Sequence record: MN850592.1
Length of the DNA stretch: 42,379 bases
From: Escherichia phage aldrigsur
Reading direction: 5' to 3' (one strand)
The notes beneath the pieces are model-generated. The model had not been told where the DNA came from, did no database searches, and saw only the letters and a program-made list of their open reading frames with translations. Within the stretch, counting starts at the first letter, position 1. Every line of letters starts with the position of its first letter. Positions 2,687 to 10,526 of this stretch are shown one piece after another. A program made the translations under genes and the position numbers.

Positions 2687-5131
2687 TTAAATTCTCCGAA
2701 CTTTGTTGTAGAACTTGATGTAGTAGCCAAGCCCCTGAATGTTCAGGTCGCCTGCCGTAGACGAATCCACGACCATGCTGCTGGACTCCACCTCAAGACC
2801 CATGCGAACCTTCAAGTGCGCACGCTTGGCCAACATCGCAGACCCCAGACCCAGCTCTTTACTGGTATACCGGATAGGGCTGCTGATGATGTTCAGTGCC
2901 GAGTACGCGCCCCGGTCGCTGGCCGTGATGTTGAACAGGCTCGTGTACCGCAACGTGAAGTTGTAGTGCATGATGACCATCTTGTTCACGTCCATGTACG
3001 AGCCGTCCTGATTGAACACACGCGGAGGCGTAGGGCTGAACAGGGCAGTGAATCGCAGGCCCACATACAGTGAGCTGCTGCCGTACGAAGGCTGGAGGTA
3101 CACGCGTCGGTTAGTGGTGTCGATGGACTTAACCCCGACCTCAGCCCCGATGTAGTTGCCAGACGGCACTACGTTCGTCATGAAATCCCAGTTGCCCTCA
3201 GTCTGGTAGCGGTACTGAATAATGTCCCACAGCGCCCTCTGCTCGCCAGTGGCAGCGAACTGAATGTACGAGCTGTCCGTGGCCGGGTTCGTCACAGTCA
3301 TCAACTGGGCGTAGTCAATGGCCGGGAGGAATCGCGCCGGGTCAGTCGGGTCAGGGGAGTCTCGCATGGACAGCGTGAGCAGGTTCATGTGGCCCTGTTG
3401 CTCAACCAAGAGCACCAGAACCTCACGGACGAACCACGCAGCCTGCACAGTCCCGTACACCTCCCAGCGATGCCACGAGGACAGAACCTTCTCGTCACCA
3501 GACCACAGGTACTCGTTCACGTAGAGCGTGGACTTCTCAGTGGTTGAGCCAAACACGACGATGTTGTTCGTGGTGCTGGCAGAGATATACGAGTTGGCCC
3601 CTTCCAGATAGGTCGGCAGGTGGTCGGTTACATCCTGACTCACGTACTGCAAATCCGTGTAGCCGGACGGCAGCATCTCCTTGATGGAGAATGAGCTGTT
3701 CGAGCGCGGGTACGCGTAATACAGGCTGCGGCCAGAGGTGGTCGGTGCTACGCCAGTGTCCATCTGGTACGTCGAGGTCAACACAGCAGTGGCGTTGTTC
3801 GGCGTAAGGATTTGGTTACGTCCGGGGATAACGGCTTGGTGTTCCTCACTGGCCAGAATCAGGTCAGAGTTGAACGGGATGCCATACCGGAACGATGCCC
3901 CGGCGAAGCTGGTTGCGGTGAACTCAATGCGGTCGTCGTCCAGTACCTGCGTCACAGTCGTACGGAAGAAGTTGGTTCTGTCTTCCTTGTTGCTGGAACC
4001 CATGGTAATGTACGGGCCGGAGAACACAATCAGGCGACCTTGGAACGAAGCCAGACCAGTGATACCCACACCATCAGCATCAGTGAATGCCGGGATTGAG
4101 TTGGTCTTGTCGTCGCCAGCCAGTCGGCCCGGCCATGAGCCTTGAGCGAACGTGTGCTGGTTGGTGGTCGAGGTCGTGCTGAATACCAGAGGCATAGTGC
4201 TTGGGTTAATCCCGGTCGGGGAACCCCACGCACCTTTCTCCACCCAGCGCGAGTTGGCGTAATCCCACTGGAAATACTGAGCGAAGCTGTCGTCGCCCAC
4301 GGTCATGATGAAGCCACCAGCCTGAGTCGGCAGACGCGCCGGGAGCTTGGTGGTCAGGTCGACGCGGTGAGTGTTCGACGCAATCGCATAGCTGGAACCA
4401 GTGTTGGTGGAGACGTTCAGGTCAGTGTACGCGGCAGTGGTCTGGAGGTACATGTACGCACCATCCACCTGCACAACCTCCAGCCCGGTAGCGCCGCCAA
4501 TGGCAGCGTCGAGCTGAGACTTCAACTGACCGATGATATATTCCGGCGTAGCCTTACCCGAAGCGCCTGTCTCGTCGGAGTTAGGTGTGGTGTAAGAGGC
4601 TGACACAGCGCCGCCGCTTGTTTCAACGCGAACGGTGTACTGCTTACCGTAGCCTCCGGCCAGCACAAAGTAGTAACCCCGGCGACCCGGATTCATACGC
4701 GTCTCGTTCTCCAGAAGCACGGGCAGCTTGGAGCAGTTGGCAACGTACATGGTGTTGCCTACGGTAGCGAACACGATGTCGTCGGGGTTGTTCGTGACGA
4801 GGTACGAGGACTGGCCCATGAACTGGACAGTCTCCGTCTCGACGATGGCGGTGACATACCCGGTCTTCGTATTCACGATGAACGTGGTGATGCCCCAGCC
4901 TAAGTTAGTGGTAGTGAATCGCAGGTGGCCGAAGTTACCAAGGCTCCAGACGTTCGCGTTAGTGGAATCCACAGTACGGTGCAGTCGGGTGCCGGGGCGT
5001 TTACGCAGGCCACGCACGGTGTCAGAGGTCATGTTGACCTGTTCCTCAACCTGCGATAGCTGGCGGTCAGTATAGACCTGCTGGCTCACGCCGCCGAGGA
5101 TGGATTTATAAGCGCCTTGGTATACTGGCAT
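2687..5131 (-). CDS. Tail tubular protein B (T7 gp12-like), 814 aa
   Basis: Size and position match T7 gp12 (~794 aa); start overlaps upstream stop (TAATG) with GGAGAGGA Shine-Dalgarno. Confidence 0.8.
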   Translation of the reverse strand: MPVYQGAYKSILGGVSQQVYTDRQLSQVEEQVNMTSDTVRGLRKRPGTRLHRTVDSTNANVWSLGNFGHLRFTTTNLGWGITTFIVNTKTGYVTAIVETETVQFMGQSSYLVTNNPDDIVFATVGNTMYVANCSKLPVLLENETRMNPGRRGYYFVLAGGYGKQYTVRVETSGGAVSASYTTPNSDETGASGKATPEYIIGQLKSQLDAAIGGATGLEVVQVDGAYMYLQTTAAYTDLNVSTNTGSSYAIASNTHRVDLTTKLPARLPTQAGGFIMTVGDDSFAQYFQWDYANSRWVEKGAWGSPTGINPSTMPLVFSTTSTTNQHTFAQGSWPGRLAGDDKTNSIPAFTDADGVGITGLASFQGRLIVFSGPYITMGSSNKEDRTNFFRTTVTQVLDDDRIEFTATSFAGASFRYGIPFNSDLILASEEHQAVIPGRNQILTPNNATAVLTSTYQMDTGVAPTTSGRSLYYAYPRSNSSFSIKEMLPSGYTDLQYVSQDVTDHLPTYLEGANSYISASTTNNIVVFGSTTEKSTLYVNEYLWSGDEKVLSSWHRWEVYGTVQAAWFVREVLVLLVEQQGHMNLLTLSMRDSPDPTDPARFLPAIDYAQLMTVTNPATDSSYIQFAATGEQRALWDIIQYRYQTEGNWDFMTNVVPSGNYIGAEVGVKSIDTTNRRVYLQPSYGSSSLYVGLRFTALFSPTPPRVFNQDGSYMDVNKMVIMHYNFTLRYTSLFNITASDRGAYSALNIISSPIRYTSKELGLGSAMLAKRAHLKVRMGLEVESSSMVVDSSTAGDLNIQGLGYYIKFYNKVRRI

Positions 5132-5679
5132 TATCCTCTCCGAGCACTCTCATAGCGCCACCAGCTCTTGCGCTGGCGAGCATTGAATCGACGCTGGCGG
5201 GTATGGATAGACTGGCACTGTTGCAGGGCCATGGCATAACCACCAGTAACACTGGCCGGGGGATTGTCACCCATGTCATCCGAGTACGCGGAGATAGCTG
5301 CTTGATATGCAACGAGTCGTTGTACCGGACTGGGTAGGTCATCCCAGCCTAAATCGTAAGTCACCAATCCCGGAACATCTTCTGTAAAAACAAAGGTTTG
5401 GGAATTAGCGTTGTAAAGATACCCGCCACGCACGATACACTCAAACCCATCAGGGATGAAGCTCAATGCGTCGGCGGGGTATTTGACACGACCATCCGTT
5501 TCGCGGGGGATGGTGATTCGAATATTGTTGAACCACCAACCATCAGTGAGAACTTCTTCCTGTGCGATACCAATCTTGTCAAGTGCAAGGGTAACGGACG
5601 GGTTTCGAATCTCGGTGGATGATACAGTGTGTTCAGACAATGCTCGAAGAACAATGTTGACTGCTTCGAGTAGAGTCAT
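5131..5679 (-). CDS. Tail tubular protein A (T7 gp11-like), 182 aa
   Basis: Size/position immediately downstream of capsid gene; GGAGG SD upstream of ATG. Confidence 0.75.
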   Translation of the reverse strand: MTLLEAVNIVLRALSEHTVSSTEIRNPSVTLALDKIGIAQEEVLTDGWWFNNIRITIPRETDGRVKYPADALSFIPDGFECIVRGGYLYNANSQTFVFTEDVPGLVTYDLGWDDLPSPVQRLVAYQAAISAYSDDMGDNPPASVTGGYAMALQQCQSIHTRQRRFNARQRKSWWRYESARRG

Positions 5680-5702
5680 AAAACCTCCCAGTGATAATCA
5701 TA

Positions 5703-5725
5703 GAAGCCCCTCAGAGAAGGGCTTC
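5703..5725 (-). terminator. Stem-loop 10 nt downstream of the major capsid gene stop (7-bp GC-rich stem, 9-nt loop); candidate terminator or RNA-stabilising hairpin
   Basis: Inverted repeat GAAGCCC / GGGCTTC seen directly; same relative position as T7 T-phi after gene 10; no clean U tract. Confidence 0.3.
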
Positions 5726-5735
5726 GAGTTTACCA

Positions 5736-6728
5736 TTAGGACTCAGTGGTAACTACAGCAACCACGTCTGGACGACGCTGACCCACGGTGTACATGTGGA
5801 AGCTATCCAGAACGTTGGTCAGTTCACGTTCGTCATCCCATACGCGGTTGAACAGCGGCTGGGCTTCGACAGTGACCAGAGCCAGAGACGGGTCGAAGAT
5901 AATCATCTTGCGCTGAATCTCGTCGGCGGTGACGTTGAAGTCAGGGCCGAGGATGTGGTCGGTGATTGCCGCCTGCGGGAACGCGTTGCTCTCGATGATA
6001 CGGATACCGTTGACGTACGCAACACGACGCATTGCGAAGTCGTTGACACCACGACCACCAGTGAACTCAACGTTCATCAGTTTCTTGTGCTCCAGCAGAA
6101 TGCTGAACCACGCCGGGTCAATCAGCGTAACCAGTCGGCCAAGGTCGGCATCGCGACGGATGAACGCCTCGATAGCTTTCTTGTGGCCGTGTACCAGCGC
6201 AGACGCATCATCTTCCTCAGATGCCACGGTGCCAGTCAGAGTGACCTGCTCCTTGATACCTGCATTGAACGCGCCAGCCAGAGAAGCCGGAGGCACGAAG
6301 TCGGCAGACTTCTGGAGCTGGATGACGTGCGCTTGGTCGAACGCCTTCGCCTGTGCAGTACCCATGTTACGGGTCAGCTCAGCGCGGAAGTCCGGCGCAG
6401 TCCAGTCGTCCTGATAGTCAATCGGGATACGGATGTAAGACACGGTATCCACAGTGACAATCAGTTTCTCAGAGCGAACTGGCTGGTTGTCCAGCGCCTC
6501 GCCAGAGCGACGACCCTTAACGGTCACAGAGCCGAGACGGTCGCCACGCCAAGTGTTGGACTGGTTAGCCACAGACTTGAAGTTGGTCAGACCGGAACGG
6601 AAGATGGAGTTGTAGATGAACTGGGTTTGAACATCACGGTCATACACCTCAAGGTGAATGTCGTTATCAGAGTTCGCGCCACCCCAGTGTGGACGGAACT
6701 GATTCGGGGTATAAGCGTTATCAGCCAT
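5736..6728 (-). CDS. Major capsid protein, 330 aa
   Basis: Size and position between scaffold and tail tubular genes; long intact ORF. Confidence 0.85.
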   Translation of the reverse strand: MADNAYTPNQFRPHWGGANSDNDIHLEVYDRDVQTQFIYNSIFRSGLTNFKSVANQSNTWRGDRLGSVTVKGRRSGEALDNQPVRSEKLIVTVDTVSYIRIPIDYQDDWTAPDFRAELTRNMGTAQAKAFDQAHVIQLQKSADFVPPASLAGAFNAGIKEQVTLTGTVASEEDDASALVHGHKKAIEAFIRRDADLGRLVTLIDPAWFSILLEHKKLMNVEFTGGRGVNDFAMRRVAYVNGIRIIESNAFPQAAITDHILGPDFNVTADEIQRKMIIFDPSLALVTVEAQPLFNRVWDDERELTNVLDSFHMYTVGQRRPDVVAVVTTES

Positions 6729-6748
6729 GGAAAATCCTTACGAAGAAA

Positions 6749-7978
6749 TTAGTAACCTTGAGCTTTAGCCTGACGGCGCTGCTCTACCAGTGCGGCGTAA
6801 TGCTTGTTGTATTCCGGGGAACCAACAGGATGCGCCTGCTCAAGCCAGCCAAGATGCTGACGGAATGCCTCGTTGGTCATAACCTCACGAGGTGCTTGAC
6901 CGCCACCATTAGGCGTCAAAGTTTGACCAGAACGCTGAATCAAATTCCCTGCGGAACCAGCGAACTGGAGAATGGTGTTCACTGCCAGACGCACCTGATT
7001 AGGGTCGCCGGAGTTCACAGCCGCTACAACGGCATCGACCGTGCCTTTGTCGGCGGCGGTGTTGAATGCCTGTACAGCCAGACCCCATCGCTCCTCGCCA
7101 CCAGCCATCTGGTAAACCTGCTGCTCGATTGCAGCGTCACGCTGCTGACCAGCCGCAACCAGTGCGCCGAATTGACCTTTGAGGATTGATACTGTCTGTG
7201 GGTCGAACTGAGCCAGATAGCGGTCGTTCACCAGAGACGGGTCACGACGCTCGTAAGCAGAACCGAACGCTGCAAGCAGGTCGATGTTCTGGCCACGGGC
7301 AATGGTGTCCATGCCTTGGAATACGGCGCGACTGGTATCGTCCGGGAAAATCTGAGCAACCTGCTCGGAGGTCAAGCCACCTTCCTGAGTAGCCAGTTTC
7401 TCAGCCGTGAGGTTGGGATTCTGGAACTGCTGCGGAGGCTGGCCCGGCTGCTGCTGCAACTGTTGGAATGGCTGCTGCTGCTGTTGAGGCTGCTGTGCCT
7501 GCGGCTGTGCGCCCGGCTGACGACCATACGGGTCGAAAGCATAGGGCTGCGGAGCTACTGGCTGTTGGAACTGTTGTGCCGGAGCCGCTTGGCCCGGAGG
7601 CGTTGCGCCCGGATTCTGATACCCATTAACCGGAATTGGTGGTGCCGCAAACGGAGAGGTCTGCTGCGGAGCACCATACGGGTTCTGCTGAGGTACGGGT
7701 GCGTAAGGACTTGGGTTTCCCTGTTGGGGCTGTGCATACGGATTCTGCTCCTGATAAGGAATCAGGCCCGGCTGCTGTCCGAACGGCTGCGCAGGCTGCG
7801 GGGTAGCGCCACCACGAGGTAACTCGATTGGCGTACCGAGACGGCCTAACGCTGGGTTCTGTACCACCTGTGGGCTTCCACCATAATCATTACCGCTGTG
7901 ACCAGAGGGAGTATAGGTCGGGCCAGCGGGTACGTTTTGGGGAGCGGGTGCGGCAGTAGGTTGGGATTCACCAAACAT
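6749..7978 (-). CDS. Scaffolding protein with ~190-aa Pro/Gln-rich low-complexity N-terminal region, 409 aa
   Basis: Position between portal and capsid genes (synteny); N-terminal half dominated by P, Q, G, Y, A. Confidence 0.6.
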   Translation of the reverse strand: MFGESQPTAAPAPQNVPAGPTYTPSGHSGNDYGGSPQVVQNPALGRLGTPIELPRGGATPQPAQPFGQQPGLIPYQEQNPYAQPQQGNPSPYAPVPQQNPYGAPQQTSPFAAPPIPVNGYQNPGATPPGQAAPAQQFQQPVAPQPYAFDPYGRQPGAQPQAQQPQQQQQPFQQLQQQPGQPPQQFQNPNLTAEKLATQEGGLTSEQVAQIFPDDTSRAVFQGMDTIARGQNIDLLAAFGSAYERRDPSLVNDRYLAQFDPQTVSILKGQFGALVAAGQQRDAAIEQQVYQMAGGEERWGLAVQAFNTAADKGTVDAVVAAVNSGDPNQVRLAVNTILQFAGSAGNLIQRSGQTLTPNGGGQAPREVMTNEAFRQHLGWLEQAHPVGSPEYNKHYAALVEQRRQAKAQGY

Positions 7979-7988
7979 GTATTCTCCA

Positions 7989-9554
7989 TTAAATCTGTGC
8001 GATGTTAGGCGCTACATCGACCGCGCCCGGCTGAACGCCTGCGGCAGCCTGAGCTGCATTGTCGATGGCCTGCCCTTCTTGGGCCAAGTCTTGTGCCGAC
8101 TTACGATAGTCGTCAAGCGCAACACCGTTGGATGCGAAGATAACCTCAAGGACTTTCTGTGGGTCGATGGTGTTAGCAACGCCATTAATATTTTGGACAG
8201 CAACCATTGCTGCCTGCGAGTCAGAGAGCGCACGAATCAGCGTCTCTGCTTCAATGCTGCGACCGAGGGCATCCAGACCAGCTTCAACTTGAAGCGACAG
8301 GATATTGCCTACGATGTCAGGTACGGTGGACTCGTCAATCTCCGCGAGCAGGACGTACGCCAGAGGAATCTGGAGGGTCTTAGCCTGCATTGAGTACGGG
8401 CCACCCAGCCCACGTTCGGCGCTGGTTGCTACCTGCTGCACTTCGGTGGCGGTGGTACGTTCGGAGTCACGGAACTCGCCAGTGTACATGAAGGCTTGCG
8501 CCAGTCGCTGCACAATCTGGTTGATTTCGTCACGGGCCTGTTGAACTTTCTGGTAATCCCCGACCTCCAAGCCGGACAGCGATGTGCCGTTCTGGAGTGG
8601 AATGACCTGACCAGTCTCTGCGCTCTCAATGTCATCGACGTTGCCGCCAGAACCAGTGAGCATCCACAGCACGCGCAACGCTTCCTGCATGTACAGAGCC
8701 GAATGCTCAGACAGCATGGACAGACGTGCGAAATCCCCAGCGTGGTCTTCGACAATCCCGCGACCGTAATGCTCGCCAGACTTCAAAGACCACACTGGGA
8801 ATAACCATGGGCAGACTTTTTCAGGGTAGTAATCCTTACCGGGGGTATAGACGCAACCTTGGTAGTTACCAATCTGCTGCGTGATTTCGTAGCCGTACGT
8901 GCCGCTGTCCTTCTGGACGCGGAGCACACGAGTGTACAGCCATACGCGTTTGTTCCCACCACAGCGGAAGCCTTTGGAGTTCAGCTCATTCTGAAAGTCC
9001 TTGGGCAGAGAATCCCACTGGATGCGCTCCTTCACGATAGCATCCACCACAACGCCACGACCGTCGCGCTGCACCACGAAGGATTCCAATCCGTACACTC
9101 GGTACGAACCAGTTTCCATATCGCGGTACAGCGCGGCGTTTCCGGTCACGGCTTGTTGGGCAATTGCTTGGAGCAGGTCAGCGTAGCCTCCATTCTCTTT
9201 GGCTTTGTCTACGATGGCCTTTTCAATAGTGATAAGCGCCTGATTAACTTGCGACATAGACTGCCGCTGTTGGTCAGACACCTTGTTTAATTTCAGCTTC
9301 ACGAATCGAGCGGAAGCCGGGAACAGGAACTCACCCAGTTTGGCAACTAGGTTGTTGACGAGCAGGGCGCCGACAGACTGGTAATCACGAGTAATCTGCT
9401 GGCGGTTCATGTCGTCCACGTCACTGCGGTCATACTCGCTCACCAGCTTGGCCAGTGTATAGCGGCTGTATTCCCGCGCTTTGGTGACAACGTTGCTATC
9501 CCGGTACTTCTGCCACAGAGACTCATAGCTGACGTTCTGCGCGTCTTGAGTCAT
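7989..9554 (-). CDS. Portal (head-tail connector) protein, 521 aa
   Basis: Size comparable to T7 gp8 (~536 aa); first large gene of the structural module. Confidence 0.85.
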   Translation of the reverse strand: MTQDAQNVSYESLWQKYRDSNVVTKAREYSRYTLAKLVSEYDRSDVDDMNRQQITRDYQSVGALLVNNLVAKLGEFLFPASARFVKLKLNKVSDQQRQSMSQVNQALITIEKAIVDKAKENGGYADLLQAIAQQAVTGNAALYRDMETGSYRVYGLESFVVQRDGRGVVVDAIVKERIQWDSLPKDFQNELNSKGFRCGGNKRVWLYTRVLRVQKDSGTYGYEITQQIGNYQGCVYTPGKDYYPEKVCPWLFPVWSLKSGEHYGRGIVEDHAGDFARLSMLSEHSALYMQEALRVLWMLTGSGGNVDDIESAETGQVIPLQNGTSLSGLEVGDYQKVQQARDEINQIVQRLAQAFMYTGEFRDSERTTATEVQQVATSAERGLGGPYSMQAKTLQIPLAYVLLAEIDESTVPDIVGNILSLQVEAGLDALGRSIEAETLIRALSDSQAAMVAVQNINGVANTIDPQKVLEVIFASNGVALDDYRKSAQDLAQEGQAIDNAAQAAAGVQPGAVDVAPNIAQI

Positions 9555-9556
9555 GC

Positions 9557-9817
9557 TTAGCTCCCAATGCCGAGGTTACTTGCCACACCAGTTCCGGTGC
9601 GACGGCGGCGACCACCCAGCGTATCAGAGGCCGAGCTTACTTGGCCACCTGCCTGAATGGTTGGGGTGTTCTCACCAGCGAGGTCGGCTGCAAGGTTAGC
9701 CTGCATCGTTTCTGCCTTCACCTGCGCCGGGTCAGTCTTGATAGTGTACTGAGGCTTTTGGCTACCCAGCCCGAAGACCGAGCCAATGCCCTTGAATACT
9801 TTGCCTACGCTACCCAT
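9557..9817 (-). CDS. Hypothetical Gly-rich small protein (possible virion protein), 86 aa
   Basis: ORF tightly packed upstream of portal. Confidence 0.45.
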   Translation of the reverse strand: MGSVGKVFKGIGSVFGLGSQKPQYTIKTDPAQVKAETMQANLAADLAGENTPTIQAGGQVSSASDTLGGRRRRTGTGVASNLGIGS

Positions 9818-10236
9818 TACGGTTTCTCCAAATCAATGAAGCGGTACTCCTGAACGTAAGGCCGCACCATATGGGAGTAACCGCACCAACGCACACCCTC
9901 TGAACGGGCCACGTCTTTGAGTACACGGAGGATGGCACGCATCACTCCACGGTTTCTGTACGGGGGCCAGACGTATGAGGCCATAACGACCACCATCTCG
10001 CCCACATGAATATCGAATAACCTGCCGATGTGTGCAACGGCCATGAGGCTGTCGTCATCGTCAGTGATGTAAACGTCAACACAACCGGAGGCGGTGGCCT
10101 CGTACATGCTGTCAACAATCACATCGGGAGATAAGTCTGACCATGGCCGCTCGGCTTGAATGCCTTCGGCCACAGCACGGCGAATGTCGAGTGGCATTGT
10201 CGTGTGTGATGTATTTCCCATAGTAGACACTTTCAT
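9817..10236 (-). CDS. Hypothetical protein, possibly GNAT-like acetyltransferase, 139 aa
   Basis: ATG at 10236 with GGGAGAG SD; weak R-x-x-G motif (YRNRGVMRAIL); function uncertain. Confidence 0.45.
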   Translation of the reverse strand: MKVSTMGNTSHTTMPLDIRRAVAEGIQAERPWSDLSPDVIVDSMYEATASGCVDVYITDDDDSLMAVAHIGRLFDIHVGEMVVVMASYVWPPYRNRGVMRAILRVLKDVARSEGVRWCGYSHMVRPYVQEYRFIDLEKP

Positions 10237-10250
10237 ACCGACAACTCTCC

Positions 10251-10442
10251 CTACAACCCAATGACACGTTCACGGATGAAGTCGATAACATCTTGTTTAC
10301 CAGCTTCTCTGTTAATCAGTGGCAGGTTGGTATCAGGGGTTACAGTCTTACCTACTGCCGCCCAAGTTCCGAAGTGTTTTTCCAGTAGAGCTAACTGAGC
10401 TTTAGTGAACGATACTCTTTCTAATGGAGATTCTTTACCCAT
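10251..10442 (-). CDS. Hypothetical protein, 63 aa
   Basis: ATG preceded by GAGAGG SD; first gene after the RNAP-downstream regulatory region. Confidence 0.45.
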   Translation of the reverse strand: MGKESPLERVSFTKAQLALLEKHFGTWAAVGKTVTPDTNLPLINREAGKQDVIDFIRERVIGL

Positions 10443-10490
10443 TACAATCCTCTCTTAGTGGCAGTAACCCCCGCCACTGACGGGGCTACC

Positions 10491-10526
10491 GGTAGCGTGA
10501 TACATATCACTATAGACACTTTCATA
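10491..10526 (-). promoter_or_regulatory. Composite conserved element (19-bp box TATGAAAGTGTCTATAGTG followed by palindrome TGATAcaTATCA) in the RNAP-downstream intergenic region; candidate phage promoter/operator
   Basis: Near-identical composite found in inverted orientation at 31190..31226; 19-bp box also at 24533..24551 and 10219..10237. Confidence 0.35.

Follow-up and report, generated by a model that had tools for sequence, protein, structure and literature searches.

The scaffolding gene of Escherichia phage aldrigsur raises the question of whether the proline- and glutamine-rich first half of its predicted product is really part of the protein and, if it is, what such a segment could do while a phage head is being assembled. 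The DNA analyzed here (sequence record MN850592.1, 42,379 nucleotides, referred to as the window) comprises all or nearly all of the genome of a Bonnellvirus phage (family Autographiviridae), and two of its features are central to the question:

6749..7978, minus strand: head scaffolding protein gene (409 amino acids (aa), 43.6 kDa, pI 5.1), recognized as the open reading frame (ORF) between the portal and capsid genes, from PHROG matches and from the annotation of phage altidsur
7409..7978, minus strand: N-terminal P/Q-rich low-complexity region (aa 1-190, 20.1 kDa), predicted to be disordered; described from its composition, AlphaFold2 (AF2) models, a charge-hydropathy plot, ratios of nonsynonymous to synonymous substitution (dN/dS) and alignments within its clade

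A first-pass annotation had placed a disordered N-terminal extension of about 190 aa at 7408-7966, equivalent to about aa 5-190, and had set it against T7-type scaffolds, taken to be normally compact and helical. The region is translated and forms the N-terminal arm of a head scaffolding protein of the phiKMV type, probably as a flexible segment that would offer many weak binding sites in the procapsid. Comparison of family sequences identifies it as a 2.5-fold, clade-specific expansion of a disordered arm that already existed family-wide and not as an added extension, because shorter Pro-rich arms are present in most family scaffolds. The gene and its product were already in the databases under a scaffolding protein annotation; what is new is the clade-specific enlargement of a family-wide trait and its enrichment in Gln and P-Y/F, not a new kind of protein.

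Composition, coding status and predicted disorder

The Pro/Gln-rich half reported by the first-pass annotation is real. Residues 1-190 contain 23% Q, 23% P, 11% G, 11% A and 5% N, together with 16 aromatic residues and only eight charged ones (two D, three E, three R and no K), and the string quoted in that annotation, QQPQQQQQPFQQLQQQPGQPPQQF, corresponds to aa 162-185, whereas aa 191-409 have an ordinary composition. Within 100-aa segments P+Q reaches 56% in the scaffold, a value that none of the 24 other long ORFs of the window approaches (20% at most), so that the enrichment is not due to chance.

The first-pass annotation had itself named a separate start codon, or a frameshift artefact, as what could detach this stretch from the scaffold. 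That the P/Q stretch lies outside the scaffold protein, whether as a separate gene, through a wrong start codon or as a frameshift artefact, has practically no probability left. This idea could draw on the GenBank record of the Cronobacter phage RZ4 (LC778449, 1750-2985), where only a 277-aa product is annotated and about 400 nt are left unannotated although an ORF of 411 codons is open there too, and on a metagenomic gene call (P0014, 305 aa) that begins at an internal Met. It is refuted by several features of the gene. The arm frame is the only one of the six that is free of stops and the only one with positive codon-usage log-odds, calculated with the phage's own capsid, portal and RNA polymerase genes as reference, and the purifying selection described below is specific to this frame. 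Translation of the full ORF is also provided with a ribosome-binding site, which follows directly on the portal stop codon (TAA at 7989-7991) and precedes the first ATG:

7984..7987, minus strand: Shine-Dalgarno sequence GGAG, 5 nt upstream of the ATG at 7978, read from the sequence

All seven of the Bonnellvirus relatives that were checked (altidsur, megetsur, HHU8, RZ4, glasur, J8-65 and Lidtsur), and LIMEzero too, have the ORF intact over its full length, and the insertions and deletions among them are all in-frame and all confined to the arm. No conserved internal start was found in the scaffold ORF: TTG at codon 202 was rejected as a start because it is I or M in the relatives, and ATG at codon 223 because it lacks a properly spaced ribosome-binding site. 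The P/Q half and the scaffold domain thus belong to one product, as first proposed. Truncated gene models such as those of the RZ4 record and the P0014 call seem to arise because the low-complexity arm leads gene callers and annotators astray.

The DNA coding for the arm has some properties of its own. A Leu/Arg-rich ORF of 168 aa overlaps the arm on the plus strand (7316-7822), but it has negative codon log-odds and was rejected as a gene, being a mirror effect of the CAG/CCN-rich coding strand. The GC content is 60-63% at 7250-7850 (52-58% in the flanks), with a plus-strand GC skew of +0.12 to +0.19 across the arm; this rise could pass for a foreign island, although it is the footprint of CCN, CAG, GGN and GCN codons. 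Tyrosine is encoded in the arm by eight TAT and one TAC codons, versus 1:5 in the helical half and 19:46 in the capsid, portal and RNA polymerase genes, a bias common to close Bonnellviruses (6-8 TAT) but not to LIMEzero or to the contig P0018. The arm DNA is not a simple repeat or microsatellite, and a recent origin by tandem repetition was discarded, since Tandem Repeats Finder gave weak arrays only (CAG-type at 7446-7507 and one more at 7579-7613).

The arm is probably intrinsically disordered, as the first-pass annotation held, according to structure prediction and composition. AF2 assigns no secondary structure to aa 1-190, with predicted local distance difference test (pLDDT) scores of 30-45; the full-length run, based on 17 sequences, reached a pLDDT of 45 and was too poor for a fold search. 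The charge-hydropathy plot also classes the arm as disordered, and its fraction of charged residues is 0.04. Prolines recur at intervals of about four residues, and no stretch longer than 11 aa is free of them (the next longest being 7 and 7 aa); in the Gln-rich tract the maximum is 7 aa. This distribution bears on the likeness to prion-like domains that had been noted for the region. Such a likeness holds for the content of Gln (23%) and Asn (5%), the presence of Tyr and Gly and the low charge (4%), and fails on proline, which makes up 23% of the arm and is evenly spread along it. Proline strongly disfavors amyloid cores, and a scaffold must moreover exit the procapsid reversibly. An amyloid-forming arm is therefore very improbable, given a Pro about every four residues.

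The helical core and the arms of its family

The remainder of the protein was divided into three parts:

6941..7408, minus strand: all-helical scaffold core (aa 191-346), from AF2 with 77 sequences and Foldseek against BFVD
6893..6940, minus strand: flexible Gly-rich loop (aa 347-362), scored under pLDDT 50 in the C-domain model (its residues 157-172)
6761..6874, minus strand: C-terminal helix-turn-helix (aa 369-382 and 388-406), candidate coat-binding hook, from AF2 helices and the invariant R401

The AF2 model of the C-domain (aa 191-409), built with 77 family sequences, consists of helices only and has a mean pLDDT of 87. Its Foldseek matches in BFVD are predicted scaffolding proteins of phiKMV-like and other Autographiviridae phages, with E values down to 2e-8 outside the clade, and no PDB entry was retrieved below E = 1. 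Searching the PDB by sequence, be it the protein alone or a profile of 45 sequences, gave no meaningful match either, and the protein has no relative with a solved structure. R401, L397 and G408 are invariant or nearly so across the family, and the C-terminal helix-turn-helix that contains the first two is a candidate for coat binding by its likeness to the C-terminal hook of P22 gp8 (PMC12005531).

The protein matches PHROG 36307 (E 7e-214). Its C-domain is recognized by PHROG 1018, annotated as 'head scaffolding protein' (E 2e-25), and has, over 57 residues, a weak match in PHROG 1052 ('head assembly', E 6e-5); when the whole protein was scanned against Pfam, no family came up at E <= 0.1. 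The C-terminal half found 402 phage records by tblastn, among them that of phiKMV, whose gp31 is 30% identical over about 180 aa, and a HMMER scan of 1.84 billion representative proteins returned 174 clusters at E <= 1e-3. The comparison with T7 gp9 by hhalign gave an E value of 0.007 but a probability of 5.6%, with a plausible-looking aligned segment, AGG(E/R)ER(W/F). The protein is thus a phiKMV-type scaffold and not strictly the 'T7-type' one that had been taken as baseline, because the homology is to PHROG 1018 and gp31, the relation to T7 gp9 being remote. In the phiKMV-like phage Ar-KM, the putative scaffold gp36 was seen by mass spectrometry in a virion preparation, although it was invisible in the density and its AlphaFold models were of low confidence (10.64898/2026.05.18.726046).

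The place of the gene is in line with this identity, as the order portal-scaffold-capsid is the same in phiKMV, LIMEzero and one metagenomic relative. The neighbors are:

7989..9554, minus strand: portal (head-tail connector) gene, immediately upstream, Pfam PF12236 (E 4e-49)
5736..6728, minus strand: major capsid protein gene, immediately downstream, with a weak Pfam Gp10A-like match and a capsid protein annotation in relatives

The 5.5 kb around the scaffold gene are 98.9% identical to Escherichia phage altidsur, in whose record the gene is labeled scaffolding protein; 18 GenBank phage records span at least 80% of this stretch and 21 match part of it. In two of the relatives, forsur (MN850617) and mellemsur (MN850570), the stretch (5000-10500 of the window) aligns in two pieces, the span in the record being about 200 bp longer, and an additional 'hypothetical protein' is annotated in this longer stretch; there may thus be a small insertion somewhere between the region of tail gene A and that of the RNA polymerase.

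How unusual the arm is was assessed with 147 family representatives, clustered at 50% identity, in which the arm was defined as the segment before the helical core. By median, this N-terminal segment is 76 aa long (interquartile range 59-92) and contains 19% Pro; among the 141 representatives in which it has at least 30 aa, 100 contain at least 15% Pro and only six are acidic. The premise that scaffolds are normally compact helical proteins is therefore not borne out within this family, and in T7 gp9 itself the N-terminal third is acidic. What does hold is that the protein is unusually long for its family, since the aldrigsur arm has 190 aa versus the median of 76, with 23% versus 9% Gln and 8.4% versus 2% aromatic residues. 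Arms of 156-192 aa were found in one clade only, the next longest being 132 and 124 aa, so the arm belongs to the longest class. Within this Bonnellvirus/Waewaevirus clade it is conserved by position.

Selection on the arm and its possible role in the procapsid

Pairwise dN/dS against the seven Bonnellvirus relatives is 0.08-0.27 in the P/Q half versus 0.03-0.11 in the C-terminal half, and by these ratios the arm is under purifying selection and maintained by selection. Conservation along the arm was measured in an alignment of 17 protein clusters of about 57-98% overall identity (alignment A1), in which 22 arm positions are invariant, including V39, N41-P-A-L-G45, Q97, N99-P-Y101, S108-P109, A112, P114, P127, Q130 and P133. 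Three parts can be told apart:

7811..7873, minus strand: conserved island (aa 36-56, PQVVQNPALGRLGTPIELPRG) with the invariant V39 and N41-P-A-L-G45, majority-residue fraction 0.77 in alignment A1
7526..7789, minus strand: zone of the degenerate motif x-P-[Y/F]-[A/G] (aa 64-151), with coupling of Pro to aromatic residues, seven P[YF][AG] copies and the invariant columns Q97 to P133
7409..7522, minus strand: variable Gln-rich tract (aa 153-190), majority-residue fraction 0.46, gap fraction 0.33, with weak CAG-type arrays at 7446-7507

Averaged over the disordered region as a whole, the majority-residue fraction is 0.56; it rises to 0.72 at aa 91-120 and is lowest of these in the Gln-rich tract, where about 40% of all gap positions in the disordered half, each an in-frame difference in length, are concentrated. 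The arm can be read as a series of motifs, VxNPALG (aa 39-45), QxNPY, SPxxAxP, PxxQxxP and the repeated x-P-Y/F-A/G, with Pro/Gln spacers between them. Nine of the 16 aromatic residues stand right after Pro, versus 3.6 +/- 1.6 in shuffled sequences (p = 0.003), and the seven P-[YF]-[AG] copies are spaced about 9-11 aa apart.

Alignments of arm to arm within the clade score z = 8-22 over composition-matched shuffles, and those outside the clade are at chance level (z about 0), so that the arm is a module conserved by position within the clade, beyond composition. One motif has a wider distribution: 12 of 143 family representatives carry NP[AM]L[GS] in their arms, versus 0.18 expected from shuffles, and these carriers include proteins with only 25-33% core identity. 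A loose likeness to this motif of phiKMV-type arms is also seen in residues 12-22 of T7 gp9 (FGVNSAVMSGG), which may be chance. Many family members also have 'hydrophobic-P-[PA]-G' close to the N-terminal tip, a loose pattern that was dropped for being too permissive in Pro/Ala-rich sequence. Synonymous divergence (dS) is uneven between the two halves of the gene: against RZ4 and glasur it is higher in the arm (0.47-0.50) than in the core (0.29-0.31), and the reverse is found against J8-65 and Lidtsur (0.47-0.80 in the arm versus 0.82-1.25 in the core), a pattern that suggests within-gene recombination or mosaic ancestry.

These data bear on the idea that the arm is a passive entropic spacer, of which length and composition alone are selected and whose extra length is neutral and derives from replication slippage in CAG/CCN-rich DNA. 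The arm does evolve 2-3 times faster than the helical half, all the length variation lies in it, especially in aa 153-190 where the weak CAG arrays are found, it shares with arms outside the clade composition only, and LIMEzero does without its first 26 aa. Nevertheless, dN/dS is well below 1, the invariant positions form clear islands, NP[AM]L[GS] is shared with distant family members, the arm DNA is not a simple repeat, and arm length is kept at 156-192 aa despite strong divergence (arm dN to LIMEzero is 0.45). A spacer of this kind thus seems rather unlikely, while carrying more weight than the other alternatives discussed here.

The conserved short motifs, for which no partner is known, could also mean that the arm has a job outside capsid assembly and binds some host factor (a chaperone, a protease, or a protein involved in division or in the envelope, for instance), and its composition recalls that of the P/Q-rich linkers in FtsK and ZipA, two division proteins of E. 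coli. Searches with the arm do not favor this: no DNA match was found in 5,426 complete E. coli genomes, which also led to rejecting a recent capture of the arm from the host, and in 50,697 phage records the matches were limited to the scaffold gene of its own clade. Besides, both the clade and the family infect diverse hosts, and the arm is always joined to the scaffold core, which leaves a host-directed role quite improbable. A protein search with the arm alone against a large database returned zero matches at E <= 1e-3, a result that is uninformative because 97%-identical proteins are present there; it is probably the composition correction of HMMER that hides low-complexity homologues.

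A flexible arm with many weak binding sites, the explanation favored here, could act as follows. The C-terminal helix-turn-helix, with its invariant R401, would dock on the inner face of the coat shell, as that of P22 gp8 does (PMC12005531). If it is taken to bind coat in this way, the nearly uncharged and proline-stiffened arm would project into the procapsid lumen. If T7-like numbers are assumed, with 100-200 scaffold copies and an inner radius of about 21 nm, the arms would reach a concentration of about 90-170 g/L in the lumen. The arm would then serve as a flexible tether, its motif islands contacting other scaffold arms, the portal and internal core proteins, or both, and these weak contacts would help to nucleate and fill the procapsid, while low charge and high proline would keep the chain extended, soluble and expellable upon DNA entry. 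The expansion in this clade would add both length and binding sites, in the form of more P-Y/F motifs.

Several points weigh against this explanation. The full-text literature searched holds no description of, and no experimental evidence on, a Pro/Gln-rich arm in phiKMV-type scaffolds, and the direction of the arm is taken from P22, inferred rather than observed. A low pLDDT obtained from a shallow alignment is not proof of disorder. The absence of the first 26 residues in LIMEzero-type relatives means that not every part of the arm is needed, and the spacing of the aromatic residues is not significantly regular (coefficient of variation 0.64 versus 0.87 in shuffles, p = 0.08).

The same aromatic residues could instead act as 'stickers' (Tyr/Phe) among Pro/Gln/Gly 'spacers' and drive liquid-like demixing, the resulting condensate concentrating coat protein and nucleating procapsids, in the manner of the carboxysome protein CsoS2. 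The arm has features that would suit it for this, namely its 16 aromatics in 190 aa, set in conserved P-[YF]-[AG] contexts, its low charged fraction, 14 P-X(0-4)-G motifs and an estimated concentration in the procapsid of about 100 g/L, and published simulations, cited in PMC13185644, suggest that condensates can hasten shell assembly. Yet the literature searched reports demixing for no phage scaffold, the spacing of the aromatics is, as given above, not significantly uniform, and most family members, which have a short arm with few aromatics, still assemble, so that demixing is not a general requirement. Demixing by the arm, which the first-pass annotation had touched on by likening the region to phase-separating domains, is judged possible but unlikely, and the fuller proposal, that the enlarged aromatic-rich arm turns the scaffold into a liquid-like condensate that recruits coat and portal and nucleates procapsids, is a distinctly doubtful one; if true, this would be the first phage scaffolding protein shown to act by phase separation, with the short-armed relatives as natural controls.

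Significance and comparison with known systems

How scaffolds organize a shell and yet stay free to leave it is poorly understood, in part because they are invisible in most reconstructions. The family to which the aldrigsur protein belongs is a natural series in this respect, in which one helical core carries Pro-rich arms that range in length from about 30 to 190 residues; in one clade the arm has become twice as long and is crowded with conserved P-Y/F motifs. A comparison or exchange of these arms bears on nucleation, filling, recruitment of portal and core, and condensate-like behavior in head assembly, and it is as a natural series of lengths and motif numbers, for the study of what disordered scaffold arms do, that the family has its main value.

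The closest known counterpart is found in phiKMV itself. Its gp31 (322 aa, PHROG 1018 family) has a homologous helical C-domain, the same gene place between portal and capsid, and a Pro-rich low-complexity N-terminus (aa 1-135 with 24% P, 16% A and 13% Q). With respect to the phiKMV-type family as a whole, the aldrigsur arm is longer, has more Gln and aromatic residues and less Ala, and cannot be aligned with arms outside its clade. The GenBank record of J8-65 confines the likeness to LIMEzero gp39 to the 'C-terminal half'. P22 gp8 provides the working model of a C-terminal helix-turn-helix that hooks onto the coat while the rest of the protein points inward, self-associates and contacts the portal (PMC12005531), although no sequence or fold match to it was detected, and it is largely helical, without a long low-complexity arm (PMC12005531). 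T7 gp9 shares the genomic position and role, a non-globular N-terminal third and a remote core match (VYQMAGGEERW... versus VIEYAGGRERF...), but its first 130 aa are strongly acidic (19% E, 11% D and 12% G), in contrast to the uncharged P/Q-rich arm, and no Pfam match joins the two.

Outside of phages, extended flexible linkers of similar composition work in the same cytoplasm, among them those of the E. coli proteins FtsK and ZipA (P/Q-rich) and SSB (G/Q/P-rich); the arm differs from them in having conserved motifs of its own and no DNA similarity to E. coli genomes. The carboxysome protein CsoS2 is a repetitive disordered protein that, through short motifs at multiple sites, organizes an icosahedral shell from the inside, and the arm would be alike in being a disordered, multi-motif shell organizer. 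CsoS2 is, on the other hand, unrelated in sequence and basic, and it stays in the finished compartment.

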